64,000 nucleotides of DNA from the NCBI GenBank assembly GCA_963789635.1, contig CAWBLF010000003.1:67388-131387 (forward strand), read 5' to 3'. Shown one piece after another: positions 11,430-27,546 of this stretch. The DNA is from an uncultured bacterium (GTDB taxonomy: Bacteria > Patescibacteriota > Minisyncoccia > Phycocordibacterales > Zambryskibacteraceae). Under the pieces are notes generated by a model. The model was not told the origin of the DNA. It saw only the letters and a list, made by a program, of their open reading frames with translations, and ran no database searches. Position numbers and translations under genes: made by a program. Within the stretch, counting starts at the first letter, position 1; every line of letters starts with the position of its first letter.

Positions 11430-11434
11430 CATGC

Positions 11435-12223: not shown

Positions 12224-12291
12224 ATCGGAATTTTACCACAACCCTTACTGGTGTTGCATTTTTCAACTAGTATGATATTCTCTTCTCCACT

Positions 12292-12447
12292 ATGTCACAG
12301 GATAATCTAATATTGCTTCGCAACAAGGAGACCGGAGAGGTCTATTTTAGTCGTAAGAATAAGCGCAAGGTCGAACGCAAAATTGAACTAAAAAAGTACT
12401 CTAAAAAACTTCGCAAACGAGTAGTATTCAAAGAGGCCAAAAAGTAA
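12292..12447 (+). CDS. rpmG: 50S ribosomal protein bL33 (missed by ORF track, 51 aa)
   Basis: MSQDNLILLRNKETGEVYFSRKNKRKVERKIELKKYSKKLRKRVVFKEAKK has the bL33 signature (KNKRN..ERLELKKY..K..VHKE), non-zinc form; followed by a terminator. Confidence 0.65.
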   Translation: MSQDNLILLRNKETGEVYFSRKNKRKVERKIELKKYSKKLRKRVVFKEAKK

Positions 12448-12450
12448 ACA

Positions 12451-12482
12451 AAAACCGCGTTTTGCGGTTTTTGTTTTTTTGT
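12451..12482 (+). terminator. Rho-independent terminator
   Basis: AAAACCGC-gtttt-GCGGTTTT followed by TGTTTTTTT. Confidence 0.65.
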
Positions 12483-12506
12483 ATTGGAAACATTATACTA
12501 ACTCCC

Positions 12507-13643
12507 ATGTCCAAGATATCTGAGAAACAGCGAACATGGGTGGAGATAGACACCAAAGCTCTTATCCGAAACCTCAAGTATTTGAAGAAAATTCTTTCCG
12601 AAAAAACCGAGCTTTTGTGCGTGGTCAAATCAAACGCATACGGTCACGGTATCGTGGAGATATCACAAACTTTACAAAAAATTGGCGGAGTCCGTCTGGC
12701 AGTGGACTCTTTTGATGAAGCAATTTTACTGCGCAGGCACAATATAAAACTTCCTATTCTTGTTTTTGGCTATACTCCAAAAATTTGGTTTAAAGATGCA
12801 GTCAGGCATTCTATTGAGCTCACCATTTCAAATACAAAATCTTTGAATGAAGCGCTTTTGTTTCGCACCTCGAAACCACTCCGTATTTCCATAAAAGTGG
12901 ATACGGGGTTGCATCGTCAAGGATTTTTGCCGGCAGAAAAGCAAAAAGTGTTGTCTATAATTGGGAGGAAGAATAAGTCGGTTTTGATTACAGGATTGTA
13001 TTCACACTTTGCCATTTCAGAGAGTAAGTCGCACAAAAAATTTACATTAATGCAGATTGAAAGACTAAAGGAGTGGTCTAAAGGTTTTAGGGCTCTGGGT
13101 TTGTCTCCGGACGTCCATATATCCTCAAGCGCCGGCCTTATAGCGTACCCCGAGGCTCATTTTGATGCGGCTAGGGCCGGTATAGCCCTATATGGCTTAT
13201 GGCCTTCCCCAGATATAAAAAATGCTACAAAAAATGGCAATGGTCTGGCACCGGTGCTTTCGTTTAGAACGTTGGTATCGGAAATAAAGGCAGTAAAAAA
13301 AGGTGAAGCGATTGGTTACGATTTGACAGAGACACTAAAAAGAAATTCCACAATTGCCATTTGTCCCGTGGGTTACTGGCATGGATATCCCAGAAGTCTT
13401 TCTCGTGTGGGTGTGACGCTTGTCAACGGCAAGCGGGCGAAAGTGCTCGGCACAATTTCCATGGATATGATGATGATTGATGTTACCGGAGTAAAGAATG
13501 TGAAAGAGGGAACAGTCGTAACACTAATCGGCAAAGATGGAAAGGAATATATGTCCGCTGATGAGGTCGCAGAACGATCCGGCACGATTAATTATGAAAT
13601 AGTAACTAGGATAAATCCTTTTGTAAAAAGGATTTATAGATAG
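12507..13643 (+). CDS. alr: alanine racemase
   Basis: PLP motif VVKSNAYGHG; overall length and fold; likely start MSKISEKQ inside the longer listed ORF. Confidence 0.85.
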   Translation: MSKISEKQRTWVEIDTKALIRNLKYLKKILSEKTELLCVVKSNAYGHGIVEISQTLQKIGGVRLAVDSFDEAILLRRHNIKLPILVFGYTPKIWFKDAVRHSIELTISNTKSLNEALLFRTSKPLRISIKVDTGLHRQGFLPAEKQKVLSIIGRKNKSVLITGLYSHFAISESKSHKKFTLMQIERLKEWSKGFRALGLSPDVHISSSAGLIAYPEAHFDAARAGIALYGLWPSPDIKNATKNGNGLAPVLSFRTLVSEIKAVKKGEAIGYDLTETLKRNSTIAICPVGYWHGYPRSLSRVGVTLVNGKRAKVLGTISMDMMMIDVTGVKNVKEGTVVTLIGKDGKEYMSADEVAERSGTINYEIVTRINPFVKRIYR

Positions 13644-13649
13644 TTTTAG

Positions 13650-13800
13650 GATTGCGGGCGGTGAAGGAATCGGTCGGACGTCGATTTCTGCTGAAATCGC
13701 GCACGACCCTGCCTCGCGCCACCGCGCTCCGGCTTTCGATTCCTTTCGCACACGCAATGATGTTCCACTCGGAAGTCTCAGCGGTCTTGCGTGATCATTG
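13650..13800. mobile_element. about 128-bp tRNA-flank module between a 22-bp direct repeat of the tRNA-Trp 3' end (M1 motif)
   Basis: ATTGCGGGCGGTGAAGGAATCG at 13651-13672 and 13797-13818; between them hairpin CGATTTC-tgctg-GAAATCG and a GC-rich second hairpin shared with motif copies at 21962 and 25021. Confidence 0.5.
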
Positions 13801-13871
13801 CGGGCGGTGAAGGAATCGAACCCTCGACAGCGGTTTTGGAGACCGCAGTTATGCCACTTAACTAACCGCCC
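13801..13871 (-). tRNA. tRNA-Trp (anticodon CCA)
   Basis: Reverse complement gives GGGCGGT-TA-GTTA-AGTGGCA-TAAC-T-GCGGT-CTCCAAA-ACCGC...GAGGG-TTCGATT-CCTTC-ACCGCCC-G. Confidence 0.8.
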
Positions 13872-13910
13872 GGAAGTCATATCCTACCAGCTTTTGGGGT
13901 GTCTTTCCAT

Positions 13911-14831
13911 TTACTTGGTCAACACTCGGTGTTGACCAAGTAAGAGAAATTTATTAACCAGGTTATTTATTTGTTTGCTATTGTTTTTAATATTCTGGTC
14001 AAACCACATGATTTTGTCGTTAGCTTTAAACCAGGTCATTTGTCGTTTTGCATACTTTATTATTTCTCCCGTGAGCTGATGGAGCATTTCTTCTTTTGAA
14101 ATTTGATTTCGTAAATATCGTGACACATATCGATATTCCAACCCAAGCGCTTCCATACGTTTCCAAGACAGGCCGTTTTTATGTAGATTGTTAACTTCGG
14201 CAATCATACCCTGGCGGATACGTTTCAAAAGCCTTTTTTTAATGCGTGTTTCTAAATCTTTTGGGTATAGACCAATGTACAAAACATCATAAGGAGTATT
14301 TTTTTTCCACAGCGGTGGAACTTTACCGAGCTTTTTGACAATTTCAATAGACCGAATAATTCTCACCTGATTGTGCTTGTCAATTTTTTTGGCTCTGCTT
14401 GCGTCAATTTTTTTCAGCATTCCAAAAAGCTCAGACGTTGTCCTTTTTTCCAACATCTTACGAAGTTTTGGATTCGGTGGCACCTCAGGCAAAGAAATTT
14501 TATCCAACAGAGTATCTATATAAAGTCCTGTTCCACCGCAAACAAAAGGAATTTTGCTTTTTGACGTTATGGAATTTATCGCTTTTTGCCCAAACTTTTT
14601 GTATTCCGCGACGGAAAATTGTTCTTCGGGATTGATTATGTCGATGAGATGATGAGGAATTCCACGCATTTCACTCTTTGTGATTTTTCCTGTGCCAAGA
14701 TTCATTCCTCGGTAAACTTGTCGTGAGTCGGCAGAAATTATTTCACCATTCCATTTTTGGGAAAGATGAATAGCCAAAGAACTTTTGCCAGAAGCGGTCG
14801 GTCCTAGTATGACAATAATTCTAGGCTTCAT
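13911..14831 (-). CDS. miaA: tRNA dimethylallyltransferase
   Basis: P-loop ILGPTASGKSSLAI, motif ISADSRQVYRGMNLGT, MiaA length. Confidence 0.85.
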   Translation of the reverse strand: MKPRIIVILGPTASGKSSLAIHLSQKWNGEIISADSRQVYRGMNLGTGKITKSEMRGIPHHLIDIINPEEQFSVAEYKKFGQKAINSITSKSKIPFVCGGTGLYIDTLLDKISLPEVPPNPKLRKMLEKRTTSELFGMLKKIDASRAKKIDKHNQVRIIRSIEIVKKLGKVPPLWKKNTPYDVLYIGLYPKDLETRIKKRLLKRIRQGMIAEVNNLHKNGLSWKRMEALGLEYRYVSRYLRNQISKEEMLHQLTGEIIKYAKRQMTWFKANDKIMWFDQNIKNNSKQINNLVNKFLLLGQHRVLTK

Positions 14832-14882
14832 GCCCGTATTGTATCAATGAAATACAAAAATTAATTTTTAATGCACAGAAAA

Positions 14883-15629
14883 TTATATTGATCCTCCGCT
14901 CGGTATTGAACCACCGCTCTGTATAGAGCCACCACTAGGAATCGATCCGCTCTGTATTGGTTGTGTTGTGGATATAGACCCACCGCTTGGGATAAATCCG
15001 CCCGCGTAAATATATCCGCCAGGAGATGCGGGATTATATGCTCCGGTTGGAAAATATAAATTGTTCCCTAGGCTAATGCTCGTATTGCAGTAGTAGAAAT
15101 AGGTGTAGTAATAACCGCTCGTTGTAAAATGTTTTTGAGGAAATACTGTCACGCTTGAGCAGGTGTTGATTGATCCTCCGGTAGCTATAGAACCTCCCGA
15201 TGGTATTGTGCCACCGCTATTAATAGTGCCACCGTTCGTACCGGTAGTACCACTTGATTGTCCAGTTTGGTTGCTTGAAGTAAATGCTCCAAGAATCTTT
15301 TCCAAAAGGCTTTGCTTTGGTGGTGGCGGGTTTGAAGAAACAACGTAATTGGGACATGCAGGATCCTGGGAATTGATCAATCCATTGCCTGCGTTATCGA
15401 CACTTACAAAACATTTCGGACAATTGGAATCCTGCATATCGGTTTTTCCATTACCGTTGTTGTCTACGCCGTCAAAACACATAGCGTAGAAGTTTGCGGG
15501 GTATGGGTCGGTGTTGCTTGGAAACTCGGCTTTGACAATGGCTATGGGAATAAATAGCATCAAAACAAGCCCGATGGCAAAAGCCGGTTTAATTTGAACG
15601 TTTTGGAGTTTTGATTTAATTGATTTCAT
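14883..15629 (-). CDS. secreted Gly/Ser-repeat protein with Cys-rich D-x-D-x-D-G modules
   Basis: Signal-peptide-like N-terminus; CFDGVDNNGNGKTDMQD...C repeats (calcium-binding-like); C-terminal (PSGGSI)n low-complexity repeats. Confidence 0.4.
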   Translation of the reverse strand: MKSIKSKLQNVQIKPAFAIGLVLMLFIPIAIVKAEFPSNTDPYPANFYAMCFDGVDNNGNGKTDMQDSNCPKCFVSVDNAGNGLINSQDPACPNYVVSSNPPPPKQSLLEKILGAFTSSNQTGQSSGTTGTNGGTINSGGTIPSGGSIATGGSINTCSSVTVFPQKHFTTSGYYYTYFYYCNTSISLGNNLYFPTGAYNPASPGGYIYAGGFIPSGGSISTTQPIQSGSIPSGGSIQSGGSIPSGGSI

Positions 15630-15771
15630 GCCTCAGCATAATACCATAGATTAAATAAAAAAGCAAGTAGATAATGATAGATGAGCAATTGTTGGTATTT
15701 ATGGCTCAAATAGGCCATAAAATTGGTAAAAAAGGGAGACCGCGCAAGCAAATGAGCTTGCGCGGTCTTTT

Positions 15772-16398
15772 TCAATCATTTATCCAACTTACCTTGGTTA
15801 GGGTGTTGACGGCATCGACTTCTTCCTGAGTCAGCCTCTCTTGTGGCTGAAAGGAATTAAGCAAATCACGATACTTCAGAGCCGAGGATTTCATTTCTGG
15901 TTTGCCGGTCACGGCCCTCATGAATGCCATGATGCTCGTCCTATGTGAGCTGATTAGTTTCAATCCGCTCGGATGTTTGTCATTCAAAAGAGTGGACACT
16001 TCGACCCACTCCAAAGGGCCGTGAAATTCATCTGGATCGTCTTTGTCGATCTTGGAGAAATTTCGTATCTCTCCCTTTTTGATCTCCATAACCACGGAGA
16101 TCTTGGCATGGTATGCGCCTGAATTTTTCTGATCGGAATCGAGCGTCGCGCTTGCCATGCTTCGGATTTCCACCTCGAACTTCATTTTGTCCTTTGCGAC
16201 CTCTTCTTCGGCGCCACGATACGCCGTTTGACTGACGGATTCACCGTGCTTGCCGGTTTCTGCCGGCAGACGAAGAGTCGTATATGCCCTGGGGGAACCG
16301 TAGTGCTTTGTGTAGGGCATAATGGCAAGAAGAATAGTGCCATCGCTCTCAAACTTCGGAATGATGATTTGTACCGTGTAGCTTACAATCGGTTTCAT
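15772..16398 (-). CDS. hypothetical protein
   Basis: 208-aa ORF; no confident family assignment (weak Nudix-like feel only). Confidence 0.35.
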   Translation of the reverse strand: MKPIVSYTVQIIIPKFESDGTILLAIMPYTKHYGSPRAYTTLRLPAETGKHGESVSQTAYRGAEEEVAKDKMKFEVEIRSMASATLDSDQKNSGAYHAKISVVMEIKKGEIRNFSKIDKDDPDEFHGPLEWVEVSTLLNDKHPSGLKLISSHRTSIMAFMRAVTGKPEMKSSALKYRDLLNSFQPQERLTQEEVDAVNTLTKVSWIND

Positions 16399-16524
16399 TT
16401 GCCCTCCTAAGGCAAAGAGATGAACGTTCTATGATGATTGCCATGAGCAATCATTCTCGCACTATTATATTATATACTTTAACTATTGTCAAATCATCGA
16501 AATGAAGCAATGTTTTTTACAATA

Positions 16525-16547
16525 TGGTGCCGGAGAGAGGACTCGAA
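16525..16547. repeat. 23-bp direct repeat of tRNA-Leu(CAA) 3' end (candidate distal att site)
   Basis: TGGTGCCGGAGAGAGGACTCGAA is identical to 22079-22101; an imperfect inverted copy TTCGAGTCCTCTCAC at 16619-16633 lets the interval fold into a long hairpin. Confidence 0.6.
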
Positions 16548-16666
16548 TCTTACAGATTCGGTACACCTTTCTTATCGTACTCCCCGCTAGCGCGTGGTCC
16601 GTGCGATATACTCAAGGTCTTCGAGTCCTCTCACGCAAGTAAAATAATTTACTTGCTTCCGACACG

Positions 16667-17068
16667 CAAAAACCCCTAAAAGGGGTTTTCTTGTGCTGTA
16701 ATTATACACTTTGCGCGAACCTTTTTCGAGCGGAAACTGAACGAATGAATCAGCCCCGCCACCGCCTCGCAGAGCCTCGGCGGACACCAAAGAAAAATGT
16801 TCCTTGCTTTTCGGATTTGCGCGCGACCAATTTCTTCTAAAAAGGAAAGGACATTTTTCTTTGGTGCTCTGCCCTCCAAGTATTCGGGCAGGTGGCGGGA
16901 CTAATGCGGACGAGGTTTTGCGAAAACTTTTTTTTGGGGAAAGGATTTCGCAAAACACTCGGCTAATCTTTTTTGAATTCGGAAGTCGCAAGCGGAGGAG
17001 GAGGGGTTTGGGGAGGAATCCTCCGCTTGCTCCGCTGTTTTCTTTTTGGGGATTTCGGGCGGGCGGTG
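16667..17068 (-). repeat. about 400-bp inverted repeat, copy 1 (non-coding, structured)
   Basis: Reverse complement is about 90-95% identical to 21547-21940; contains a 20-bp perfect internal hairpin (CACCAAAGAAAAATGTCCTT...AAGGAACATTTTTCTTTGGTG) and a CCCC/GGGG terminator-like hairpin. Confidence 0.7.
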
Positions 17069-17079
17069 GACTAGAAATA

Positions 17080-19071
17080 CTAAGGAATAAGTCTTTTGTA
17101 TGTCCTTGGGAAAGGAACGGCGTCTGAAATCATTTCTTTGGCTAGAATTTTAGCAACAAGTCTGTCCAACCCAAGACAAAAACCTCCATGATCTACAGCT
17201 TTGTCTACAATAGAAATATAAAATTCATAATCGCTTATATTGATTCCTGACAATAACATTGATTTTTTAATTTGTGCCCCGTCTGTTTGTCTAATCGCAC
17301 CACTTACAAGCTCCCAGCCATCAACGATAATATCAAAAGTTTCAGTCAATCCACCAGATTTATTTTTTGTATAAAACTTTTTTATCGTATCTGGGTAATC
17401 TTTTATGATAAAAATATCACTAGCATTTCTGCTTTTGATTAACTGACCTAATTTAGCTTCACTCACTAGGCCAAGATCATCGCCCATTGTTACGGGGTTA
17501 CCATTTTCTTGAAGCAGTTTGACTGCTTCACAATATGTCAGCACAGGAATTTTATCAATTTCAGGTAGAACCAAATAGCTTGTAAGACTAAAAGTTTTAA
17601 TCAAATCATCGTTTGTCTTCTTAATTATCTGGCAAGCCAAATAATACAAGTTCTCTAAATTCTTTGGATTTTTCAACTCAATATCTAATCCAATTGATTC
17701 TTGTAGGTGTCGATAGGATTCACTCGTTTCTTTCCTCCAAAAGGGGCCAATTTCATATATCTTCTCCAGACCAGATGCAACAAGAATTTGTTTGTAGATT
17801 TGATTAGATTGTCTCAAAAACGCAGGAGCTCCATTCATCCAATCTACATTTATTGTCCCTCCCTTATCAACTTTTGGTGGGTCGGTAGAAAGGCCTACGA
17901 TATATGGTGTCGTTACCTCTAGAAACTTTTGATCATCCAAATAATTTCTGATAATTTTGTACATTTTACTTCTCTGACTGACCAAATCTAATTTATCCTT
18001 ACCCAGCTTTTTAAAATTACTTTGTCTTTGTTGATTTATATACAGCTTTGCGACATTCCTGTTAATTTGATCAACAATTACACCTAATTTCTTGTCTATA
18101 ATACTTTTTGCTTTACTAATTTCATTTTTTCTTGCCCCAACATTGTTTTCTGCGATTTCTGATAGTTTTTCTATCCCAATAAAGCTACTGACTTTGCCCG
18201 CTAACAATGAGGGCGTTGATAAATCAACAAAGAAAATCCTGTTAAGATCATCAATCTTGTTTAGCAAACCGCCTACAACTCGCTTGGTCTCGGCATTATT
18301 ATCAAGAGCAATAATAATACATGCTATATCTTCCGATGATTTGAAATCTGCAAAAGACGAGTATTGAACACTCGTTTCATTAAGATTTTCTTTTGGAACA
18401 TCAATAATTGTCCTATTGACTATGTGTAGTGGCAAAGCATTTTCTACGTTTAAAATTTTAGCAACAAGCTTTCCGGACTTCCCATAACCAATTAATACAG
18501 ATCTCTTTCCTTCTGGGATATTTTTTACCACAAGCTCACTTGCTATTCTTTCCAAAGAAGTGTTCCCTTCAAAAATACTAGTTTTTAGTTTACATTCATT
18601 GGCAAGCTCATTAAGCCAATCAGCAATGAATACAAAAGGGCTTCCATCTCCGTGTATTCCAGACTTTAATCCTTCAGCCATTTGCGATAAAACCTGAGAA
18701 TCGCCAATTGTAACGCTATGAATTCCGACAGCACATTCGCCTAAAAATTTTATAGCGTTGATCTCATCATAAAATTTTATATCCCTAATCAAACTCATTA
18801 TTCCACCATGTGCATGAGAATCCCAAGTTGATAACATTCTCCCTCTCAGATACTCAAAAGAAAGATCGTCTTGGTAAGAAATTAACAACATAACAGCATT
18901 ACACTTCTTTATCACTGCAATAGAATCAATATTAAGTCCTAGATCATTTTTAAATTGATTTAGAAATTCAGAATCATTTTTTAGATCTGCCAATTGTAAA
19001 TTACTCAGAGCCTTTTCATCAAGTCTTTGATAGTTCAACGCTGCACAAATTATTTTATTAGAGAGTGTCAT
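17080..19071 (-). CDS. fusion protein: glutamyl-tRNA reductase-like (HemA-like) N-domain plus class II aaRS (AspRS/AsnRS-type) catalytic core
   Basis: N-terminus aligns with GluTR (CN(A) active-site Cys region KKCNAVMLL, GDSQVLSQMAEG, Rossmann VLIGYGKSGKLVAKIL...IVNRT, FFVDLSTP); C-terminus has class II motifs 1 to 3 (FLEVTTPYIV; IGPFWRKETSESYRHLQESIGLDIE; HGGFCLGLDRLVAKIL) and no anticodon-binding domain. Confidence 0.55.
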   Translation of the reverse strand: MTLSNKIICAALNYQRLDEKALSNLQLADLKNDSEFLNQFKNDLGLNIDSIAVIKKCNAVMLLISYQDDLSFEYLRGRMLSTWDSHAHGGIMSLIRDIKFYDEINAIKFLGECAVGIHSVTIGDSQVLSQMAEGLKSGIHGDGSPFVFIADWLNELANECKLKTSIFEGNTSLERIASELVVKNIPEGKRSVLIGYGKSGKLVAKILNVENALPLHIVNRTIIDVPKENLNETSVQYSSFADFKSSEDIACIIIALDNNAETKRVVGGLLNKIDDLNRIFFVDLSTPSLLAGKVSSFIGIEKLSEIAENNVGARKNEISKAKSIIDKKLGVIVDQINRNVAKLYINQQRQSNFKKLGKDKLDLVSQRSKMYKIIRNYLDDQKFLEVTTPYIVGLSTDPPKVDKGGTINVDWMNGAPAFLRQSNQIYKQILVASGLEKIYEIGPFWRKETSESYRHLQESIGLDIELKNPKNLENLYYLACQIIKKTNDDLIKTFSLTSYLVLPEIDKIPVLTYCEAVKLLQENGNPVTMGDDLGLVSEAKLGQLIKSRNASDIFIIKDYPDTIKKFYTKNKSGGLTETFDIIVDGWELVSGAIRQTDGAQIKKSMLLSGINISDYEFYISIVDKAVDHGGFCLGLDRLVAKILAKEMISDAVPFPRTYKRLIP

Positions 19072-19817
19072 ATGTTTTTATGAATAACTTCTACAGTTGC
19101 TTGGTGTAGTGGAGTAACCGTAATCTCATTTATTTGAACATGTTCTGAAAGATTTATTACATATTTAATAATATCAGCAATGTCGTCTCCTGATAATGGC
19201 TTAATCCCTTTGTATACATTTTTAGCTTGTTTAGTATCTCCGCCGAAACGAACATTACTAAAGTTTGTTTCAACTAATCCTGGCTGTATATTTGTTACTC
19301 TAATGTCATTTTCTACTACTTCCTTTCTAAGTCCGTCAGAGATAGATTTTACAGCCGCTTTCGTTGCTGCATATACAATACCTTTGGAATAAGATGAGAT
19401 ACCTGCAATAGAACCAATATTGATAATATGTCCGCTGTTTCTTTCTTTCATACCCTTAAGCGCAAGCTTGGAAACCATAAGCAATCCTTTTATGTTGGTA
19501 TCAATCATCTGATCCCAATCCTTTATACAACCGTCTTCTAGTTTTTCTAATCCTAAAGCAAGACCAGCAGAGTTTATTAATACGTCTGGATAAAGATTGA
19601 GAGATTCTAAATTTTCAAACATTTTAGAAATCTGGGACTGGCTAGTAACATCAACAGCGAAAACATGTACGTCCTTATTGTTGCTTAGCTCTGATTTAAT
19701 ATTTTCTAACCCTGAGAGATTTCTGGAGCACAAAATCAATCTATTTCCGTCAGACAGTTTTTTGACACATGCCAATCCAATACCACTGCTTGCTCCTGTA
19801 ATTAGTATCGTTTTCAT
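19068..19817 (-). CDS. short-chain dehydrogenase/reductase (SDR)
   Basis: TGASSGIG cofactor motif, NSAG, catalytic YAATKAA; 4-nt start/stop overlaps with neighbours indicate an operon. Confidence 0.8.
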   Translation of the reverse strand: MKTILITGASSGIGLACVKKLSDGNRLILCSRNLSGLENIKSELSNNKDVHVFAVDVTSQSQISKMFENLESLNLYPDVLINSAGLALGLEKLEDGCIKDWDQMIDTNIKGLLMVSKLALKGMKERNSGHIINIGSIAGISSYSKGIVYAATKAAVKSISDGLRKEVVENDIRVTNIQPGLVETNFSNVRFGGDTKQAKNVYKGIKPLSGDDIADIIKYVINLSEHVQINEITVTPLHQATVEVIHKNI

Positions 19818-21232
19818 AGAGAAGATTTTTTAAAGTTTATTCCCAGCTCAACTTTTTGCTTTTCAGATATTTCAGCTGGCGCATTCATCATTAAATCTTT
19901 TCCATCACCCGTTTTTGCAAAAGCAATGATCTCCCTAATATTTGGCTCCTGTTCAAGGATCATCATAAGTCTGTCGAATCCCCACGCAATGCCACCATGC
20001 GGTGGAGCGCCAAGCTCCAACGCTTTCAACATATGACCAAAATTGTTTTCTATTCTTTCATTGTTATACCCCATAATCTCGAAAGTAGTTCGTAGTGCAG
20101 AAGGTTTGTGATTCCTTATACTTCCGCCGCCGATTTCGAGCCCATTCAAAGTAATATCGTATTGTGTGGTAACAATTTCTCCAATACTTTCTTTCCGCAT
20201 AAATTTCTCAAAATCATTGTCTCTTGGTTTTGAAAAAGGATTATGGGTGAATGTCCACTCGCCAGTGCCATCAACATTATCCTCTCCTGTCTTTTCAAAC
20301 ATAGGGAAATCTACAATCCAAAGAAATGCAAGAAGATTTGTGTCTGTTTTATCCTCTCTTATGTCAGGTTTATCATTCCCATATTTTTTCATTGCTTCTT
20401 TGTAGGACATTCTCGGAAACGGTATTTGTTGTATCTTTTTTTCCGGATAGTTTATTTTTACGATATCAATTAATAGTTTTTCATTTAATTGCATAATGTC
20501 ATCTTCAGTAACAAAGGACATTTCCATATCAAGCTGAGTAAACTCGGGCTGTCTATCCCCGCGAGTATCCTCATCTCTCATACAACGCGCAAACTGAAAA
20601 TATTTTTCAAAACCGCCAACCATCAAAAGTTGCTTATATTGTTGCGGAGATTGAGGAAGTGAATAAAAACTTCCTTTGTAAATTCTGCTTGGCACAACAT
20701 ATGAGCGAGATCCTTCAGGTGTTGGCGCAGACAAAAGAGGCGTTTCTATTTCTAAAAAGTCATCTTTTCCAAGATAATTTCGAATGAAATTTTGAATCTT
20801 AAATCTATTTGCAATATTTTTGTGCATTCTGTCGTTTCGTAAATCCAAATATCTATATTTGAGACGAATAGATTCATTCACCTCCCTAGTATCACCACTA
20901 ATCGGGAACGGCAAAGTTGCCGATTCATTTAAAACATTGATATGCAAAATCTCAAGTTCTATATCTCCATTTAGTATTCCTAATTTTTTATTTTTCTCGG
21001 GTCTTTCGTTTACCTTTCCAGTAACTTCAACTACAAATTCTTCTCGTAGAGTTTTACCGACTTCCATTGCATTACTGTTTGGTAATATCACACCTTGTAC
21101 AATGCCTGATGTATCACGAAAATCCAGAAAGATCATTTTCCCTTGATCACGGCGAACATTAACCCAACCATAAACAATGACGGTTTCCTGTTTTTTTCCT
21201 GACAATTCATTTATGTAAGTTCTTTTTTGCAT
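19814..21232 (-). CDS. aspS: aspartyl-tRNA synthetase, bacterial type lacking the GAD insertion domain
   Basis: OB-fold N-domain, RLKYRYLDLR, motif 1 FLEIETPLL, QSPQQYKQLLMVGG...FARCMRDEDTRGDRQPEFTQLDMEMSF, GGGSIRNH, motif 3 HGGIAWGFDRLMMIL; 472 aa with no approximately 110-aa GAD insert. Confidence 0.8.
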   Translation of the reverse strand: MQKRTYINELSGKKQETVIVYGWVNVRRDQGKMIFLDFRDTSGIVQGVILPNSNAMEVGKTLREEFVVEVTGKVNERPEKNKKLGILNGDIELEILHINVLNESATLPFPISGDTREVNESIRLKYRYLDLRNDRMHKNIANRFKIQNFIRNYLGKDDFLEIETPLLSAPTPEGSRSYVVPSRIYKGSFYSLPQSPQQYKQLLMVGGFEKYFQFARCMRDEDTRGDRQPEFTQLDMEMSFVTEDDIMQLNEKLLIDIVKINYPEKKIQQIPFPRMSYKEAMKKYGNDKPDIREDKTDTNLLAFLWIVDFPMFEKTGEDNVDGTGEWTFTHNPFSKPRDNDFEKFMRKESIGEIVTTQYDITLNGLEIGGGSIRNHKPSALRTTFEIMGYNNERIENNFGHMLKALELGAPPHGGIAWGFDRLMMILEQEPNIREIIAFAKTGDGKDLMMNAPAEISEKQKVELGINFKKSSL

Positions 21233-21237
21233 ATACT

Positions 21238-21447
21238 TTATTTCATTAAAACATCAAGCGAAACGCCAAGCGCGTCTGCAATTTTTTTGACTGTATCAAT
21301 AGTAGGGTTGGGCGTTGAGCCAGCTTCTATTTTAGCAATTGTATGAAAAGCCAAATTTGCCTTTTTTGATAAGACATCTTGAGAAATGCCGAGCTTGTTT
21401 CGGTATTTCTTTATGTTGTCCCCAATTGTGGATTTATCGTTTGACAT
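21238..21447 (-). CDS. XRE-family helix-turn-helix transcriptional regulator
   Basis: 69 aa; HTH_XRE pattern IKKYRNKLGISQDVLSKKANLAFHTIAKIEAG. Confidence 0.75.
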   Translation of the reverse strand: MSNDKSTIGDNIKKYRNKLGISQDVLSKKANLAFHTIAKIEAGSTPNPTIDTVKKIADALGVSLDVLMK

Positions 21448-21546
21448 ATTCGTATAGTTTTACTATTATAGTTAGTATGTATATAAAGTCCTAACTATAT
21501 ACGAGTTAGTATATGAAATTTTCACCATTTAGTCAAACGAAATTGT

Positions 21547-21940
21547 CCGCCCGAAATCGCCAAAAGAAAACAGCGGAGCAAATGGAAAATTCCTCCCCAA
21601 ACCCCTCCTCTTCCATTTGCGACATCCGAATTCAAAAACAAATGAGCCGAAGTTTTGGCGAAATCCTTTCCCCAAAAAATAGTTTTGCCAAAACTTCGTC
21701 CGCATTAGTCCCGCCACCTGCCCGAATACTTGGAGGGCAGAGCACCAAAGAAAAATGTCCTTTCCTTTTTAGAAGAAATTGGTCGCGCGCAAATCTGAAA
21801 AGCAAGGAACATTTTTCTTTGGTGTTCGCCGAGGCTCTGCGAGGCGGTGGCGGGGCTGATTCATTCGTTCAGTTTCCGCTCGAAAAAGGTTCGCGCAAAG
21901 TGTATGATTACAGCACAAGAAAACCCCTTTTAGGGGTTTT
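21547..21940 (+). repeat. about 400-bp inverted repeat, copy 2
   Basis: Near-identical to the reverse complement of 16667-17068; followed directly by a tRNA-Leu 3'-end copy (21944-21961). Confidence 0.7.
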
Positions 21941-21943
21941 CTT

Positions 21944-22078
21944 GTGCCGGAGAGAGGACTCGGTCACACATAAAATTCTGCTGAATTTTTGCGCGACCCC
22001 GCCTCGCACCATCGTGCTCCGGCCTTCTCGTCCTCTCACCAAAATATAAAAACCAGCAGTAAGCTGGTATTTATATTT
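21944..22078. mobile_element. about 127-bp tRNA-flank module (M2 motif) between an 18-bp direct repeat of the tRNA-Leu(CAA) 3' end
   Basis: TGCCGGAGAGAGGACTCG at 21944-21961 and 22081-22098; hairpin AAAATTC-tgctg-GAATTTT; GCGCGACCCCGCCTCGCACCATCGTGCTCCGG; imperfect inverted arm CTCGTCCTCTC; AT-rich spacer. Confidence 0.5.
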
Positions 22079-22162
22079 TGGTGCCGGAGAGAGGACTCGA
22101 ACCTCCACCCCTTGCGAGACACGATTTTGAGTCGTGCGCGTCTGCCATTCCGCCACTCCGGC
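22079..22162 (-). tRNA. tRNA-Leu (anticodon CAA), CCA encoded
   Basis: Reverse complement gives GCCGGAG-TG-GCGGAATGGCAGACGC-G-CACGA-CTCAAAA-TCGTG, variable arm TCTCGCAAGGGGT, GGAGG-TTCGAGT-CCTCT-CTCCGGC-A-CCA. Confidence 0.8.
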
Positions 22163-22298
22163 ATTACTACTACTGACAACATACAACTTACAACAAATAA
22201 AATGATGAAACAAGAAGATAATCTTGTGGTGTTACCCAATTTAAATTTTGGCTAAAATTTGTTTGGGATGATTGCTTATTGTATGTTAAAATCAACGT

Positions 22299-23297
22299 AT
22301 GAGCCAATTCTATAAAGATTCTATTTTTTGGATTGAACTGGATAAAATAGAACCCAATCCATTTCAACCTCGTCGGGAATTCAGCGAGCCTGAACTGCAA
22401 AGTTTGGCGGATTCTATCCGTCAATATGGTGTGCTTCAGGCTTTGGTTGTGACCCGCAAGGAATTTCAAAAAGAAGACGGAGGAATCGGAGTGAAATATG
22501 AACTTATCGCAGGTGAACGCAGACTTCGAGCCTCGCGGGTGGCGGGACTGACACAGGTGCCGGTGCTTATTAAGACCGGTGACGACACAGACTTGATGAA
22601 GCTTGAACTTTCCATCATTGAAAATATTCAGCGTGAGGATCTGAATCCAGTGGACAGGGCGAGAGCGTTTGACAGACTTGCCAACGAATTCGGTTTTAAA
22701 CATCACATCATTGCTCAAAAAATCGGTAAAAGCAGGGAATATGTATCAAACAGCCTTCGTCTTTTGATGTTGCCGGATTTTATCTTGCAGGCCTTGAGTC
22801 AGGGTAAAATTTCCGAAGGTCATACACGACCATTGATGATGCTCCAAGACAGGACAGATGAACAAACAGTGTTGTTTAAAGAAATAATGTTTAAAAAATT
22901 GACGGTCCGTGAAGCGGAGGGGATAGCCCGTCGCATCGCCGTAGACAAAGTCCGCAAAAAAGAAAATATTATTGATCCCGAACTTATTGATTTGGAAGAA
23001 AAGTTGCGGGAAGCGCTTGGGACTCGGGTACAGATAGAAAGACGCGAGCAGGGCGGAAAAATTATGATTGATTTTTTTAACAATGACGATTTGAAAGGTC
23101 TTTTGGATATTTTTCAGACAAATGTTGTTAAAGACCCGAACGAAGCTTTGAAAAAATTTGAAACTGAACATGGGCAAGCAACAGGAAATATAGCGCAATC
23201 GGGAGAAAGTATCACAGATGAAATGCCGATTGATGATCGTTCTCAAGCGGAAAAGAATGATGATCAAATGTACTCGGTCAGCAATTTTTCGATTTAA
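22299..23297 (+). CDS. parB: chromosome partitioning protein ParB/Spo0J
   Basis: ParB N-domain GERRLRAS, HTH, C-terminal dimerisation region; 332 aa. Confidence 0.8.
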   Translation: MSQFYKDSIFWIELDKIEPNPFQPRREFSEPELQSLADSIRQYGVLQALVVTRKEFQKEDGGIGVKYELIAGERRLRASRVAGLTQVPVLIKTGDDTDLMKLELSIIENIQREDLNPVDRARAFDRLANEFGFKHHIIAQKIGKSREYVSNSLRLLMLPDFILQALSQGKISEGHTRPLMMLQDRTDEQTVLFKEIMFKKLTVREAEGIARRIAVDKVRKKENIIDPELIDLEEKLREALGTRVQIERREQGGKIMIDFFNNDDLKGLLDIFQTNVVKDPNEALKKFETEHGQATGNIAQSGESITDEMPIDDRSQAEKNDDQMYSVSNFSI

Positions 23298-23300
23298 GTT

Positions 23301-24830
23301 TTACCACTTTCTGCTTTTTTGCACGGCAATCCGAATATGACGTTTGGCTCCCGTGGTTTTGGCATATTCCAACCATTTTGCGGTCGGTTTGTTGTTTGGT
23401 CTTGTCACAATTTCCACCACATCTCCGCCAAGAAGCACCGTATCAAGGGATACCAACTTGCCGTTGACCTTTGCACCGGACATATGATTGCCAATGTCCG
23501 AGTGAATGGAGTAAGCGAAATCTACCGGGGTGGAATCTTTCGGTAAATCCACCACATCGCCTTCCGGAGTGAAGACAAATATTCTGTATTGAAAAAAATC
23601 GCTTCGCAAATCTTCTTTCAATTTTTCATTATCCGTGACATTTCCTTGATGTTTTACAAGATCCTTTATCCAATGCGGGATATCTTCAAATTTTGAAGAA
23701 AAAATAGGCACTGATTTCCAGTCGATTACTTCTTTGAAATTTTGTTTTGGAAGAAGTTGTCTTAACCATGAGAAATTTTCACCTTTGGCTCCCTTTTTGT
23801 TTCCTTCTTTGTATGAAATGTGGGAGGCAATGCCGTATTCCGAGTGAAGATACATTTCCTCCGTTTTTATTTGAACTTCCACTACATTGCCGTCCCCGGT
23901 AAAAACGGTGGTATGTAGCGCCTGATAGCCGTTTGGTTTTGGAAAAGCGATGTAGTCCTTGATGCGTCCGGGAAGTGGACGGTATGTGCCGTGTATAACA
24001 CCGAGAGCCTGATAACAATCTGCAATAGTTGGCACAATGACGCGTAGTGCAAGAATGTCGGTCACTTCTTCCAAGTGTCTTTTCTTTCCTTGCAATTTTT
24101 TATACAGACTAAACAATCCTTTGACCCTATACTCGGTACGAATGTATGTAACATTCTCTTTTGCCAAAGTTTTCTTGAGAGATTTTAAAAATTTTTCCAA
24201 ACTTTGCAAATTTTCTTCATGTTGGATTTTTACTTCCTTTTGAAGTTTTTCATACTCCTTCGGGTAGACGTAGGGGAAGGACAAGTCTTCAAGTTCGCGT
24301 GACAACTTTCTAATACCCAATCTGTATGCAATTGGGGCATAGATTTCCAAAGTTTCACTGGCTATGCGTTTACGTTTTTCTGCCGGAACATGAATAAGGG
24401 TGCGCATATTGTGGAGGCGGTCGGCGAGTTTGATCATCAGAACTCTGATGTCCTGGGCCATTGCCACAAATAGTTTGCGCATACTTTCGTTGTGACGGTC
24501 GGCCCCGTGATATTGGAGTTTGCCGAGTTTGGTAACCCCCTCAACCAAAAAAAGAATCTCGGAGTTGAATTCTTTCTCAATAACTTTCGGCGCAGTACCA
24601 ATGTCTTCTATAGTGTCGTGCAGTAGTCCGGCGGCAACAGTGGAAGCTCCCATGCCGTATTCGGCAAGAATTTTTGCAGTTTCGGACAAATGTGAAAAAT
24701 ATGGTTCACCGGATAGGCGAAGGTGATCTCTATGTGCTTCTTCTGCGAATGTATAGGCATGACGAACCACTTCCTTATCTTCTTCGGAGGAATTGTCCAT
24801 TGATGCGAGTATTTCCTCGATGGCGGCCAT
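23301..24830 (-). CDS. RelA/SpoT-homolog (p)ppGpp synthetase/hydrolase, short form
   Basis: HD hydrolase motif HDTIEDIG, RelA_SpoT synthetase region, TGS domain; no ACT domain. Confidence 0.85.
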   Translation of the reverse strand: MAAIEEILASMDNSSEEDKEVVRHAYTFAEEAHRDHLRLSGEPYFSHLSETAKILAEYGMGASTVAAGLLHDTIEDIGTAPKVIEKEFNSEILFLVEGVTKLGKLQYHGADRHNESMRKLFVAMAQDIRVLMIKLADRLHNMRTLIHVPAEKRKRIASETLEIYAPIAYRLGIRKLSRELEDLSFPYVYPKEYEKLQKEVKIQHEENLQSLEKFLKSLKKTLAKENVTYIRTEYRVKGLFSLYKKLQGKKRHLEEVTDILALRVIVPTIADCYQALGVIHGTYRPLPGRIKDYIAFPKPNGYQALHTTVFTGDGNVVEVQIKTEEMYLHSEYGIASHISYKEGNKKGAKGENFSWLRQLLPKQNFKEVIDWKSVPIFSSKFEDIPHWIKDLVKHQGNVTDNEKLKEDLRSDFFQYRIFVFTPEGDVVDLPKDSTPVDFAYSIHSDIGNHMSGAKVNGKLVSLDTVLLGGDVVEIVTRPNNKPTAKWLEYAKTTGAKRHIRIAVQKSRKW

Positions 24831-24976
24831 GTGCCCATTATATTGGTAAGGAGAAAAAATAAAAGCACCGAGTCAAAACATCCTATGTCCCAACGCATTG
24901 GGACATCGGATGTCTGATTCGCCATTCCTTACGGGACTGCGAGATTACTTCGGTTTATTTAATTTATCCGGTCGAT

Positions 24977-25400
24977 GATTTGGGCACTTGTTATTACTGC
25001 AACGAACAGGGATTGTTTTTGGTCACACATAAAATTCTGATGAATTTTTGCGCGACCCAGCCTCGCGCCGTCGCGCTCCGGTTCACCAAGACCCGCGCGC
25101 AGGCAGCCCCGTTGCCTGCTTCTATTCGGACTTGTCAATTTTGTGTGGATTATGATTTTTGCAAGATTTATTTGAACAGCGCACGGGGATTGTTTTTAGT
25201 CACAAATATTTTGCTCACCGCCATTCGCAAAATTTTGCGACCCCGACTCGGCATTTTTTCTGCTGAAAAAATATGCCTCCGTCTCACAAAAACAAGTGAG
25301 TACGCAGTCTATACTGCGTACTTTCAAAACTACTTCATTAACTTATGCGGATTGTGATTTGGGCAAGCTTTATTACTGCAACGAACAGGGATTGTTTTTG
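24977..25400. mobile_element. about 334-bp insert downstream of topA bounded by 45-bp direct repeats derived from the topA 3' end; holds motif copies M3 and M5
   Basis: 24977-25021 matches 25356-25400 (about 40/45), which encodes the topA C-terminus (CSNKACPNHNPHKL); interior has GTCACACATAAAATTCTGATGAATTTTTGCGCGACCCAGCCTCGCGCC and a rearranged copy at 25215-25275. Confidence 0.5.
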
Positions 25401-27546
25401 TGCCTTCCATCATCAAGGAACCGCAAAGTTTGCAGATTTCTCCGGTCGGTTTGGCTTTGATAGCGTATCGGCATTTGGGATAGTTGGTGCAAGAATAAAA
25501 AATGCCAAAACGGCCGCGGCGTTCAATCATCTCCCCGTCACCGCATACCGAACATTTGATGCCGGTGAGAAGTTTTTTTCTGGTCTCTGGATCATCTTTA
25601 ATAAATTTACACTTTGGGTATCGGGCACAAGAAATAAACCGGCCAAATTTTCCGTCCCTCTCCACCAGATTGGCCTTGCCACATTTGGGGCAGAGTTCAC
25701 CTGTGTCTTTGGGTCCCTCCATAGCCACACCATCTATGGTGCGAGCGCCATGGCAGTCCGGAAACTTATCACAAGAAAGGAATCTGCCATTTTTGCCAAG
25801 TTTTACTATCATTCCGGAACCGCAGACAGGGCACTTCCATTTTGCGTCCGCGGAACCCATATTGGTAATCTTGGCAATTTTATCTTTGGATTTAACGTCT
25901 TTAAGAAAAGGCCCATAAAACTCTTTTAGTGTTTTGACGTAGTCGCGTTTGCCGAGAGCGATTTCATCCAATTCATTTTCCATTTCAGCGGTGAAAGTAT
26001 CGCTGATGTAATTCATAAAATTGTTTTCAAGAAAGGTGCTGACCACGTCTCCGGTGTCGGTGGGGACGAGCGCGCGATCTATTTTCATAACGTAGCCACG
26101 ATCGATAATGGTTTTGATGATGGAGGCGTACGTCGACGGTCTACCGATACCGCGTTTTTCGAGTTCTTTGACAAGACCGGCTTCTGAATAGTGCGCTGGA
26201 GGAGTAGTTTCTTTTTCTTCAGTTCGAAAATCTTTGAGTTTTAAATTTTCACCTTTTGCAATTTTTGGAAGCTCCACATCTTCTTGTCGAGCGCGGGGGT
26301 CTGCGACAAGCCAACCATCAAAGAGTATATGAGAGCCAGTTACAGAAAAATTTGGGATTATATTCGCGCTACTGCGCTCAGTATCTTCGTCGCTCCCGCT
26401 CCTCGACACATTGGCAATTATCTTGGTGCGCAAGGTATTGGCGGAAGCCATTTGAGATGCCACTGTTCGCGCCCAAATCAAGTTGTATAACTTTTTTTGT
26501 TCTTCATTGAAACCGGCGTTTTCTTTTCTCAAATCGGATGGTCGGATGGCTTCATGGGCCTCTTGGGCGTTTTTGCTTTTTCGCGAATATACTCGCGCTT
26601 CATAATATTTTTCACCAAATTTTGATTTTACAATGTTTTCAATTTGTTGTTTTGCCACGACAGACAAGTTTGTACTATCGGTACGCATATAGGTAATTAA
26701 CCCCGCCTCGTAAAGTTTTTGAGCGGTGCCCATAGTGCGTGAAGGTGAAAAACCAAGTCTAGAGCTGGCGGCTTGTTGCAGAGTGGAAGTAATGAAAGGC
26801 GGTCGAGGCTGGCGTTTGACTTCGGTCTCTTTGATATCTATTACCGACCAATCTTCTTTCTTTGCACTGTCGACGATTTTTTCTACTGTTTCATAGTTGC
26901 GAGGTTCTTCTTCACAGGTCAGTGTTATTGGTGTTTTATCTGAAGTAAGAAAATCTGCAGTCAATGTCCAAAATTTTTCCGGCACGAAGGCTCTGATTTC
27001 ACGCTCACGCTCCATCAATATGCGAAGAGCGGGGGATTGGACACGTCCCGCAGAAAGGCCATAACGCACCTTTTTCCAAATCAAACCGGATAGGTCATAA
27101 CCCACAAGGCGGTCTAGGACTCTGCGTGCTTCTTGGGCAATTTTTAGGTTATTGTCGATTCCACGGGGATGTTTTATGGCTTCCGATACTGCGTCTTTGG
27201 TAATTTCATAAAAAACAACACGTTTGGGTTTCTTCAGTCCTACGGCCTCAGAAATGTGCCAAGCGATAGCTTCACCCTCACGGTCCGGGTCGGTGGCTAG
27301 GAGGACTTCTTCGCTATTTGCGGCAAGGTGGCGAATTTCGTTTACCACTTTTTCTTTACCTTTTGAGATTTCGTAATGAGGAACAAATCCGGCTTCGATA
27401 TCAATAGCTTTTTTGTTTGATTTTGGGAGATCACGGACATGACCAACAGAAGCGACTACATCGTATTCGCCATCAAGATATTTTGAAATTGTTTTCGCTT
27501 TTGCTGGTGACTCCACAATCAAAAGCTTTTTACCTTTTGTTGCCAT
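25330..27546 (-). CDS. topA: DNA topoisomerase I with C-terminal zinc ribbons
   Basis: TOPRIM N-terminus KLLIVESPAKAKTI; topoisomerase IA core; multiple C4 zinc-ribbon repeats. Confidence 0.9.
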   Translation of the reverse strand: MATKGKKLLIVESPAKAKTISKYLDGEYDVVASVGHVRDLPKSNKKAIDIEAGFVPHYEISKGKEKVVNEIRHLAANSEEVLLATDPDREGEAIAWHISEAVGLKKPKRVVFYEITKDAVSEAIKHPRGIDNNLKIAQEARRVLDRLVGYDLSGLIWKKVRYGLSAGRVQSPALRILMEREREIRAFVPEKFWTLTADFLTSDKTPITLTCEEEPRNYETVEKIVDSAKKEDWSVIDIKETEVKRQPRPPFITSTLQQAASSRLGFSPSRTMGTAQKLYEAGLITYMRTDSTNLSVVAKQQIENIVKSKFGEKYYEARVYSRKSKNAQEAHEAIRPSDLRKENAGFNEEQKKLYNLIWARTVASQMASANTLRTKIIANVSRSGSDEDTERSSANIIPNFSVTGSHILFDGWLVADPRARQEDVELPKIAKGENLKLKDFRTEEKETTPPAHYSEAGLVKELEKRGIGRPSTYASIIKTIIDRGYVMKIDRALVPTDTGDVVSTFLENNFMNYISDTFTAEMENELDEIALGKRDYVKTLKEFYGPFLKDVKSKDKIAKITNMGSADAKWKCPVCGSGMIVKLGKNGRFLSCDKFPDCHGARTIDGVAMEGPKDTGELCPKCGKANLVERDGKFGRFISCARYPKCKFIKDDPETRKKLLTGIKCSVCGDGEMIERRGRFGIFYSCTNYPKCRYAIKAKPTGEICKLCGSLMMEGTKTIPVRCSNKACPNHNPHKLMK

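Follow-up and report, generated by a model that had tools for sequence, protein, structure and literature searches.

The 64,000-nucleotide (nt) stretch analyzed here, called the window below, comes from an uncultured patescibacterium of the family Zambryskibacteraceae (assembly GCA_963789635.1, contig CAWBLF010000003.1, positions 67,388 to 131,387) and carries, behind an intact tRNA-Leu(CAA) gene, a short module that duplicates the end of that tRNA. Read on the minus strand, in the sense of the tRNA, the gene is followed by an AT-rich spacer; an arm, X', that is complementary to the 3' strand of the tRNA-Leu T-stem and to part of the T-loop; a GC-rich, conserved core; and X2, an exact direct copy of the tRNA 3' end (Table 1). 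A gene islet and a third copy of the tRNA end, X3, lie farther downstream. The 18-mer shared by the three copies (CGAGTCCTCTCTCCGGCA in the tRNA sense) has exactly three sites in the window, X1 within the working tRNA, X2, and X3, with no exact matches expected by chance (100 shuffles). A chance repeat is ruled out, because the 18-mer is absent from the shuffles and the alignment described below covers the whole module. X1 is followed by the encoded CCA and X2 by CAAG, which matches the native flank at two relatives' empty sites, L121 and L124 (L-numbers are labels of the genome loci compared with the window). A CCA behind X1 and the CCA-less flank of the empty sites (GCACAA) behind X2 are what is expected if X2 is the displaced original end of the tRNA.

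An initial annotation of this sequence had described X2 as a perfect, reverse-sense copy of the tRNA end, accompanied by an imperfect inverted arm and an AT-rich spacer of about 38 nt in a module close to 128 bp. The copy is indeed perfect, but it has the same sense as the tRNA and looks reversed only on the plus strand. The inverted arm is present (CTCGTCCTCTC, 22027 to 22037), with 8 of its 11 positions pairing with the tRNA copy, and the full arm forms a closing stem, P1, with X2 or with X1. The spacer is AT rich as described, but it measures 41 nt and holds a terminator-like hairpin. The size estimate was too low, given that the repeats are spaced 137 bp apart at tRNA-Leu and 146 bp apart at tRNA-Trp.

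The initial annotation had also held that the module behind tRNA-Leu matches another one behind tRNA-Trp part for part, and fold, alignment, and scores against a covariance model of the family (R1; 90.2 and 85.8 bits, respectively) all bear this out. The pairwise alignment that it had proposed runs ungapped over 83 nt at 75% identity, far past the short motif to which the similarity might have been confined, and the segment from 21945 to 22045 aligns with the Trp module over its whole length. The tRNA-derived flanks, for which chance matches of less than 12 nt had been considered, are exact repeats of 18 nt at tRNA-Leu and 22 nt at tRNA-Trp, where positions 13651 to 13672 duplicate 13797 to 13818. 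The Leu module (21949 to 22045) matches R1 over the full model length (E = 1e-32) and shows all the features by which this family, family A, is defined: the core of two hairpins, P2 and P3; a G.U pair; a bulged A; an AGCA-type loop; and a locus-specific closing stem. When the tRNA-sense strand is folded, the Leu and Trp modules form the same three-way junction (z = -5.6 and -4.6), in which P1 joins arm X' to the tRNA-end copy X, with a short hairpin as P2 and a long one as P3.

Table 1. Features of the tRNA-Leu(CAA) locus and related loci in the window
Feature	Position	Strand	Evidence
tRNA-Leu(CAA), intact, CCA encoded	22079-22162	-	ARAGORN; Rfam tRNA, 57.3 bits
X1, repeat copy: last 18 nt of tRNA-Leu before CCA	22082-22099	-	Exact 18-mer
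Spacer, AT rich, 41 nt	22038-22078	-	Long hairpin: 21-nt arms, 95% complementary
Terminator-like stem and T-run inside the Leu spacer	22052-22068	-	Terminator scan
Arm X' (GGUGAGAGGACGAG)	22027-22040	-	Sequence, fold, family covariation of P1
Family A core, GC rich, conserved	21963-22026	-	Fold, 101-sequence alignment, 90.2 bits
P2 hairpin of the Leu core	22001-22023	-	GGA/GA internal loop, GAYG-type loop
P3 hairpin of the Leu core	21962-21998	-	Invariant G.U pair, bulged A, AGCA loop
X2, exact 18-nt direct copy of the tRNA-Leu 3' end (T-loop C56 to discriminator)	21945-21962	-	
Terminator-like hairpin (AAAACCCCUAAAAGGGGUUUU) directly after X2; outer part of right inverted repeat	21920-21941	-	Sequence and islet-end alignment
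Islet, cargo of second unit: operon of helix-turn-helix (HTH) protein, aspartyl-tRNA synthetase (AspRS), short-chain dehydrogenase/reductase (SDR), and fusion of glutamyl-tRNA reductase (GluTR)-like part with class II aminoacyl-tRNA synthetase core	16658-21951	-	Pfam, NCBIfam
Family B module closing the second unit	16548-16665	-	Sequence, fold, alignment, recurrent layout in other genomes
Core B and CUGUAAG hairpin	16545-16621	-	
Arm X'b, two halves split by a hairpin (16633-16656)	16622-16632 and 16657-16665	-	
X3, third copy of the tRNA-Leu 3' end, 23 nt including CCA (exact 18-mer, 16528-16545)	16525-16547	-	
Family A module behind tRNA-Trp	13651-13799 (core 13659-13755)	-	85.8 bits; orthologs in L104, L121, L122, L028
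tRNA-Trp	13800-13871	-	ARAGORN, Rfam
Family B module behind tRNA-Tyr	11490-11575	+	
Divergent family A module, enlarged P2, behind tRNA-Lys(CUU), at the end of a Cys-Leu-Lys tRNA cluster	3395-3492	-	26.2 bits, E = 6e-8
topA, ending in GTKTIPVRCSNKACPNHNPHKLMK-stop	25330-27546	-	
Family A variant, enlarged P2 and P3 loops, behind topA	25185-25298	-	37.2 bits
First displaced topA end, intact: KTIPVRCSNKSCKNHNPHKIDKSE-stop	25122-25196	-	Translation
Family A module behind topA	25008-25104	-	76.9 bits
Second displaced topA end, intact: KTIPVRCSNNKCPNHRPDKLNKPK-stop	24942-25019	-	Translation

The structure was examined in an alignment of 101 non-identical family A members. P2 is 98 to 99% paired and nearly invariant in sequence, with a GACG loop in 81 members; P3 is 97% paired, nine of its pairs have changed on both sides, and its loop is AGCA in 77 members. 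The covariation score is 0.40, compared with 0.16 for shuffled alignments (none of 500 reached the observed value) and 0.10 to 0.14 for slid pairing partners. An independent run of RNAalifold recovered the same P2 and P3 together with a further covarying pair that leaves a single conserved bulged A. The P3 pair G52.U80 is G.U in 100 of the 101 sequences; on the opposite strand it becomes an A.C mismatch, so the gene-sense strand is the functional folding one. P1 behaves differently, in that its sequence varies with the local target and all six pair types therefore occur: the 3' strand of the stem is a copy of the upstream gene's end, and the stem is accordingly locus specific (CGANTCC, CACAAAC, AGGTTGAG, and others), next to junction segments GUGAC/C and AAAGCC. 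For example, the cores behind tRNA-Leu and topA are 89% identical and share the same P3 apex, but their arms are unrelated.

A fold of this kind could belong to a cis-acting structured RNA in the 3' trailers of tRNAs and mRNAs that serves the host, with the gene-end copy forming part of the working structure and the family spreading by local duplication and being inherited vertically. Its role might be 3'-end processing, termination, protection from exonucleases, or provision of an alternative 3' end for the same tRNA body. The restriction of folding to the gene-sense strand, the invariant G.U pair, the conservation of bulge and loop, and the presence of tandem G.A alternatives at the junction all speak for such an RNA, which the evidence considered below nevertheless makes rather unlikely.

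The core pattern recurs in at least 119 genome loci, and all of the matches listed fall in Patescibacteria except for one chance match in an actinobacterium. Among these listed matches are Saccharibacteria, Parcubacteria/Paceibacterota, Nomura-, Kaiser-, Taylor-, Campbell-, Yonath-, Taga-, and Berkelbacteria, and Minisyncoccia. Model R1 finds 137 copies in 100 loci (661 kb) and 34 in another 26, for a total of 171 copies in 126 loci (∼0.87 Mb). In the window, it finds five copies, all on the minus strand, behind tRNA-Leu(CAA), tRNA-Trp, tRNA-Lys(CUU), and, twice, topA; the repeat of the divergent tRNA-Lys module is of a short type that consists of the tRNA terminus plus trailer. Tandem units occur in the window at tRNA-Leu and topA, and elsewhere at L045 and L116.

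A same-strand tRNA, from among many isoacceptors, lies just upstream of the core in 75 of 125 instances of the pattern. In about 30 instances, at least 19 nt of the upstream gene's end are duplicated, and the duplicate always begins directly after the GUGAC that ends the core. The repeat starts at T-loop position C56 in at least 42 of the 101 aligned members and is of the CACAAAC type, covering only the last bases of the tRNA and the trailer, in 16; in others, it is the end of a protein gene, and ribosomal-protein-like genes are among these targets. A structured RNA would leave the modules at such unrelated protein-gene ends unexplained. The duplication ranges from 7 to ∼75 nt but always extends to the gene end. 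The smallest units measure ∼95 bp and have almost no spacer (1 nt in L035). Four of the six tRNA transcription units in the window are followed by a module in their own orientation, and a terminator-like hairpin separates the tRNA from the core in 14 of 52 tRNA-linked copies and is absent from the other 38; both observations favor the structured RNA.

Direct repeats that run from the T-loop to the 3' end of a tRNA are also the classic identity block of tRNA attachment (att) sites, and units accrete in tandem at a single tRNA. The modules might thus be footprints of tyrosine integrases, that is, attL/attR remnants of the cis-mobilizable type left behind after prophages or integrative elements entered tRNA genes and lost their own genes. 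We consider this barely plausible. Random decay would not leave the same covarying unit of ∼95 nt more than 170 times at many targets, or minimal units that are nearly free of spacer, and double-stranded arm-type sites would not preserve hairpin covariation or a strand-specific G.U pair. Furthermore, the core pattern had no matches in 2.9 million viral contigs, on which ground a phage origin was rejected.

The known RNA families offered no match. At the gathering thresholds of Rfam 15, only the eight tRNAs match in the window, and an E-value scan of positions 11200 to 26000 gave no match over any module up to E = 5; a known RNA family is therefore ruled out. ARAGORN found no transfer-messenger RNA (tmRNA) in the window. 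Hammerhead, hepatitis delta virus (HDV)-like, and twister ribozymes and group II intron domain V were rejected as well, on a by-eye comparison in which the junction sequences did not fit and no model matched. A literature search, which included raw sequence strings, found no description of the element. The family thus appears to be undescribed, lying outside Rfam and the literature as far as these are searchable.

In L083 and L044, an intact tRNA-Ile is followed by a displaced tRNA-Ile 3' half that begins in the anticodon loop, and a family A core with an extra hairpin sits within the T-loop of this displaced half. In L044, the displaced half shows compensatory T-stem differences from the working tRNA. 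The idea that such a variant is an intron in the tRNA T-loop was rejected, as the interrupted half is the displaced copy behind an intact tRNA-Ile.

To compare relatives at the tRNA-Leu site, a metagenome scan with the 3' half of tRNA-Leu(CAA) was combined with synteny analysis. In L121 and L124, the site is empty, and the tRNA runs straight into miaA. In L104, the tRNA is followed by a single family A module and then miaA. In L123, the closest relative (78% identity over relA-parB-tRNA-Leu), an unrelated gene and a NUDIX homolog follow the tRNA, and no module is present; the segment from tRNA-Leu to NUDIX differs entirely between L123 and the window, although the flanks are syntenic. The strain variants that the initial annotation had suggested looking for were accordingly found, with no unit in L121, L123, and L124, one in L104, and two in the window. 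Its proposal that two elements accreted in tandem at one tRNA is likewise supported, because three exact copies of the tRNA end delimit two units. The distal repeat, X3, does belong to this accretion, but it is preceded by the core of a different family, family B, rather than by a second family A copy. The tRNA-Trp and tRNA-Tyr sites of L123 also are without modules. The modules missing from these sites are therefore dispensable and polymorphic, which is difficult to reconcile with an RNA that serves the host.

Modules have nevertheless been kept at orthologous tRNA-Leu and tRNA-Trp sites of distant relatives, which would suit a structured RNA. At tRNA-Trp, in four genomes with three tRNA alleles, X2 matches its own tRNA at 22 of 22 positions while spacers and cores diverge; the identity of the two copies is thus kept up independently, which suggests either that the copies recombine or that X2 has to fit the tRNA body. 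The tRNA-Trp alignments would be consistent with recombination that continues between the repeats. X2 also follows compensatory T-stem and acceptor-stem changes of its own tRNA, which would be expected of a structured RNA in which X2 pairs with the 5' strands of the tRNA. Conversely, the tail of X2 is lost in the Trp module of L122 and decayed in the Leu module of L104, which counts against such a role. In the Trp module of L028, X2 follows a tRNA change, and the arm does not.

The end of a protein gene is replaced in the same way at topA. Three intact topA C-terminal ends of ∼25 codons, with a zinc-ribbon motif, lie within positions 24942 to 25404 with modules between them, and each displaced end directly follows a family A module. 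Over 21 codons, 19 nt separate the end in use from the first displaced end, with nine codons changed synonymously and four non-synonymously. Compared with the end in use in L123, which it resembles, the first displaced end shows eight synonymous and two non-synonymous codon changes. Because the differences are mostly synonymous, the topA ends are alleles that diverged under coding constraint and not decayed duplicates. Behind topA in L123, the two module types stand in the reverse order, with one of them a remnant, so units have been reshuffled between relatives. Intact, divergent, synonymously changed gene ends are left unexplained by a structured RNA. A diversity-generating retroelement was rejected as the source of the repeats because there is no reverse transcriptase, the repeats are short, and the differences are not adenine specific.

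Stacked ends that are divergent alleles are, however, what would be expected of imported DNA, and DprA is encoded next to topA in the window. The modules might then spread with no dedicated machinery, through natural transformation and homologous or homology-facilitated recombination, with the gene body plus X1 and X2 as the arms and a core that has a separate role or is selfish. Such passive spread can account for transfer at the same locus, and it would agree with the complete difference from L123 of the segment between tRNA-Leu and NUDIX, within syntenic flanks, as well as with the lack of a recombinase linked to any copy, described below. As a full explanation it is quite improbable. Homologous exchange cannot put a core at a new kind of target or make a new complementary arm; it provides no reason for the arm at all; and the start of the copy directly after the core in every fresh insertion, like the strong conservation of the core, is left unexplained.

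The second unit at tRNA-Leu runs from X2 to X3 and differs from the first in its contents. In the position of the 41-nt spacer of the first unit, it holds a 4.7-kb operon, and kilobases of cargo in that position are a further feature for which a structured RNA has no explanation. The islet is bounded by inverted repeats of ∼390 bp (16658 to 17046 and 21562 to 21951; 94% complementary) that have inverted copies of the tRNA-Leu 3' end, together with the terminator, at their outer ends. The unit is closed by a module of family B (AAGACCUUGAG...AAAGGUGUAC plus a CUGUAAG hairpin), which has the same layout of arm, core, and gene-end copy as family A; the two halves of its arm, X'b, together make up an inverted copy of the whole tRNA end. 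Family B was also found in L093, L110, L046, L076, L032, and L014. A composite in L003 (∼7490 to 7670) has a family B core nested between the P2 and P3 hairpins of a family A core. The cores may thus be modular domains, or they may insert into one another.

A homolog of the islet operon adjoins tRNA-Leu(TAG) in L125 and L126, where the fusion protein is 89% identical and the locus again includes long inverted repeats, together with a 61-nt diverged tRNA-Leu fragment. In L125, the orientation of the operon relative to its tRNA is opposite to that in the window, and many public contigs with the operon are 4.3 to 4.6 kb long, as if assemblies break at the repeats; the islet segment may be invertible. 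TraC-like and TraG/DUF87-type genes adjoin the L125 homolog (positions 1 to 7037), which suggests that a larger conjugative or type IV secretion element has integrated at tRNA-Leu(TAG) and includes this copy. The proximity of the tRNA-Leu fragment and the TraC/TraG-like genes is a point in favor of relics of integrase-borne elements.

The islet genes themselves (17080 to 21447, minus strand) encode an XRE-type HTH protein, a bacterial-type AspRS of 472 amino acids (aa) that scores 604 bits against the aspartate--tRNA ligase model, an SDR, and a fusion protein of 663 aa that joins a GluTR-like N terminus to a class II catalytic core of the Asp/AsnRS type. The fusion protein has 110 homologs, all from Patescibacteria where named. 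This gene set suggests an unexplored pathway of tRNA-dependent aspartyl reduction. Beyond the islet, a 248-aa open reading frame (ORF) (14883 to 15629, minus strand) contains internal repeats with an 18-nt periodicity and has no Pfam or NCBIfam match.

A search for linked enzymes covered the window and the neighborhoods of the other copies. The Pfam scan took in 46 of the 55 window ORFs of at least 110 aa (nearly all of those of at least 145 aa), and the scanned ORFs encode housekeeping proteins only, including IF2, ClpB, UDG, Alr, MiaA, ParB, RelA/SpoT, TopA, DprA, SerRS, Dus, and RNase J. Recombinases, transposases, and reverse transcriptases are absent from this set. Clustering of the neighboring ORFs in 119 loci gave no recurrent gene apart from the housekeeping genes whose ends are targeted. 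A linked recombinase is thus rejected on both counts, and the same results tell against integrase relics, given that no integrase was found in the scanned ORFs or as a recurrent neighbor.

An unlinked enzyme could still be guided by the module if the latter acts as an RNA, with X' and X guiding a recombinase or nuclease to the two target strands in the manner of the IS110 bridge RNA or the TnpB omega RNA, or if it moves by reverse splicing and reverse transcription. The conserved scaffold resembles a structured RNA and is directly adjoined on its 3' side by a target-identical segment, as in omega RNA, with a target-complementary one on its 5' side; the target, moreover, is chosen by nucleic acid sequence and not as a fixed site. 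We nonetheless hold RNA-guided or RNA-catalyzed movement to be highly improbable: no IS110, TnpB, IscB, or reverse transcriptase was found in the scanned window ORFs or recurrently beside modules, and no bridge-RNA, omega-RNA, or intron family of Rfam matched up to E = 5. In addition, the supposed guides pair with each other, unlike known guides, and the fold is a three-way junction instead of the two internal loops of the bridge RNA.

We tentatively favor, at a probability of roughly 45%, the reading that the segment from 21945 to 22078 is one unit of a group of small, non-autonomous integrative cassettes found across Patescibacteria, in which the folded stem of arm and copy mimics the target. 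Each unit would consist, in order, of a replacement gene 3' end (X1, now in the working tRNA), a spacer, and an attachment module made up of X' and the two-hairpin core; the spacer could range from a few nucleotides through a terminator hairpin to kilobases of cargo. The first unit would have integrated at the T-loop of tRNA-Leu(CAA), so that the earlier 3' end, X2, was displaced downstream, with the second unit (the islet and the family B module) placed behind the first and ending in X3. In a free, single-stranded form of the element, presumably folded DNA rather than RNA, X' would pair with the element's own copy of X and thereby create, beside the core, a double-stranded mimic of the chromosomal target. 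A trans-acting enzyme would read the core by its shape and exchange strands with the matching gene end, probably with the crossover next to the core, to give the product X-spacer/cargo-X'-core-X. Repeated events would stack units, and recombination between X copies would remove or reorder them.

Several points weigh against such cassettes. Neither an enzyme nor an excised or circular form of the element has come to light. The invariant G.U pair, the bulged A, the AGCA loop, and the near-invariant P2 would be more usual in a functional RNA than in the single-stranded DNA att sites that are known. Because so few cores are preceded by a terminator-like hairpin, most would be co-transcribed with the tRNA. 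The presence of modules at orthologous sites in genomes that are only ∼67 to 77% identical (the window, L104, L121, and L122) implies long residence or a benefit to the host. Since the stem differs at every locus, a recombinase that reads sequence cannot explain the modules; the new arm X' that a core lineage acquires for each new target, as between the closely similar Leu and topA cores, is not accounted for; and in L028 the arm has not followed the tRNA change that X2 follows. Finally, spread at the same locus between strains could proceed by ordinary homologous recombination in which the gene and X2 serve as the arms.

A further proposal, that these cassettes form a new class of mobile element in which nucleic acid mimicry sets the target, the ∼65-nt core recruits an enzyme of the candidate phyla radiation (CPR), and the stem copied from the gene end programs the integration site, seems doubtful at present. 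If the mimicry reading is true, any gene end could serve as an attachment site, and tRNA 3' ends or the topA C terminus could be swapped like cassettes; if the stem programs the target, the system would be a naturally retargetable form of integration with a very small cis requirement, of interest for genome engineering. If the core is instead a functional RNA, it would be among the most widespread unannotated structured RNAs of a major bacterial radiation. Patescibacteria have tiny genomes with few recognized mobile elements, and their gene exchange and rearrangement are poorly understood. In these bacteria, the family is abundant from Saccharibacteria to Parcubacteria, marks most tRNA operon ends in the window, carries cargo, and replaces the ends of essential genes. 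The covariance model R1 can be used immediately for annotation and makes a search for partner proteins possible.

Among known systems, repetitive extragenic palindromic (REP) sequences and their composites (bacterial interspersed mosaic elements [BIMEs] and REPINs), miniature inverted-repeat transposable elements (MITEs), and Correia elements are likewise short, abundant, hairpin forming, and non-autonomous, lie outside genes just behind them, and may affect transcripts. In those repeats, however, the ends are fixed, and target duplication is absent or else short and of constant length, whereas the arms of the modules copy the neighboring gene end. Unlike a MITE or another insertion sequence derivative, the module has a single inverted repeat, formed by the arm and the target copy, and its duplications vary from 7 to ∼75 nt. 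With the IS110 bridge RNA and the TnpB omega RNA, the module shares a conserved structured scaffold flanked by target-matching segments; it differs in the lack of any effector gene found or model match, in the three-way junction, and in the mutual pairing of its target-related segments.

Integrative mobile elements exploiting Xer (IMEXs) of the CTX-phage type are a closer parallel. The folded single-stranded attP(+) hairpin of such an element is integrated by the host XerCD recombinases at dif, and integration leaves a target copy, the body, an inverted arm, a spacer of ∼90 nt, and another target copy. The modules have the same integrated layout, stack in tandem at one site, and come with no element-borne recombinase that could be found, and a duplex mimicking the chromosomal site can form from their arm and target copy. 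Their targets, on the other hand, are differing gene ends (tRNAs, trailers, topA, and ribosomal-protein-like genes) instead of dif, the spacer is represented by a conserved structured core and not by arbitrary sequence, units of less than 100 bp without genes are possible, and the pattern was not found in viral contigs.

Integrative elements that target tRNAs, together with derivatives that lack genes, such as cis-mobilizable elements (CIMEs) and tycheposon arrays, also insert at the 3' part of the tRNA, restore the gene with an identity block, displace the old end downstream, accrete in tandem, and carry cargo. The direct repeats of the tRNA 3' part that flank CIMEs are found here as three exact 18-nt copies at tRNA-Leu and as 22-nt copies at tRNA-Trp. 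Unlike these elements, the modules have no integrase in the scanned ORFs, form units down to ∼95 bp, contain a covarying hairpin core with a target-complementary arm, and bring the same core lineage to many targets in one genome.

The resemblance to integrons is of another kind. There is no IntI or attI platform in the scanned window ORFs, and the modules lack the RYYYAAC inverse core and GTTRRRY core of attC sites; in addition, the module has a conserved center and a variable, locus-specific stem, whereas attC has the reverse, and module arrays lie at the 3' ends of housekeeping genes and replace those ends. Like attC, however, the module is a strand-specific folded hairpin, with an invariant G.U pair and covarying stems, and paired sites, corresponding to the inverse-core and core sites of attC, flank a center; if the proposed mechanism is true, it would also be read by its shape as a folded single strand. 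Like integron cassettes, moreover, the units come with or without genes, have no recombinase of their own, and form same-orientation arrays that can be reshuffled. The finding can thus be described, on the reading favored here, as gene-end-restoring integrative cassettes with a folded attachment site.

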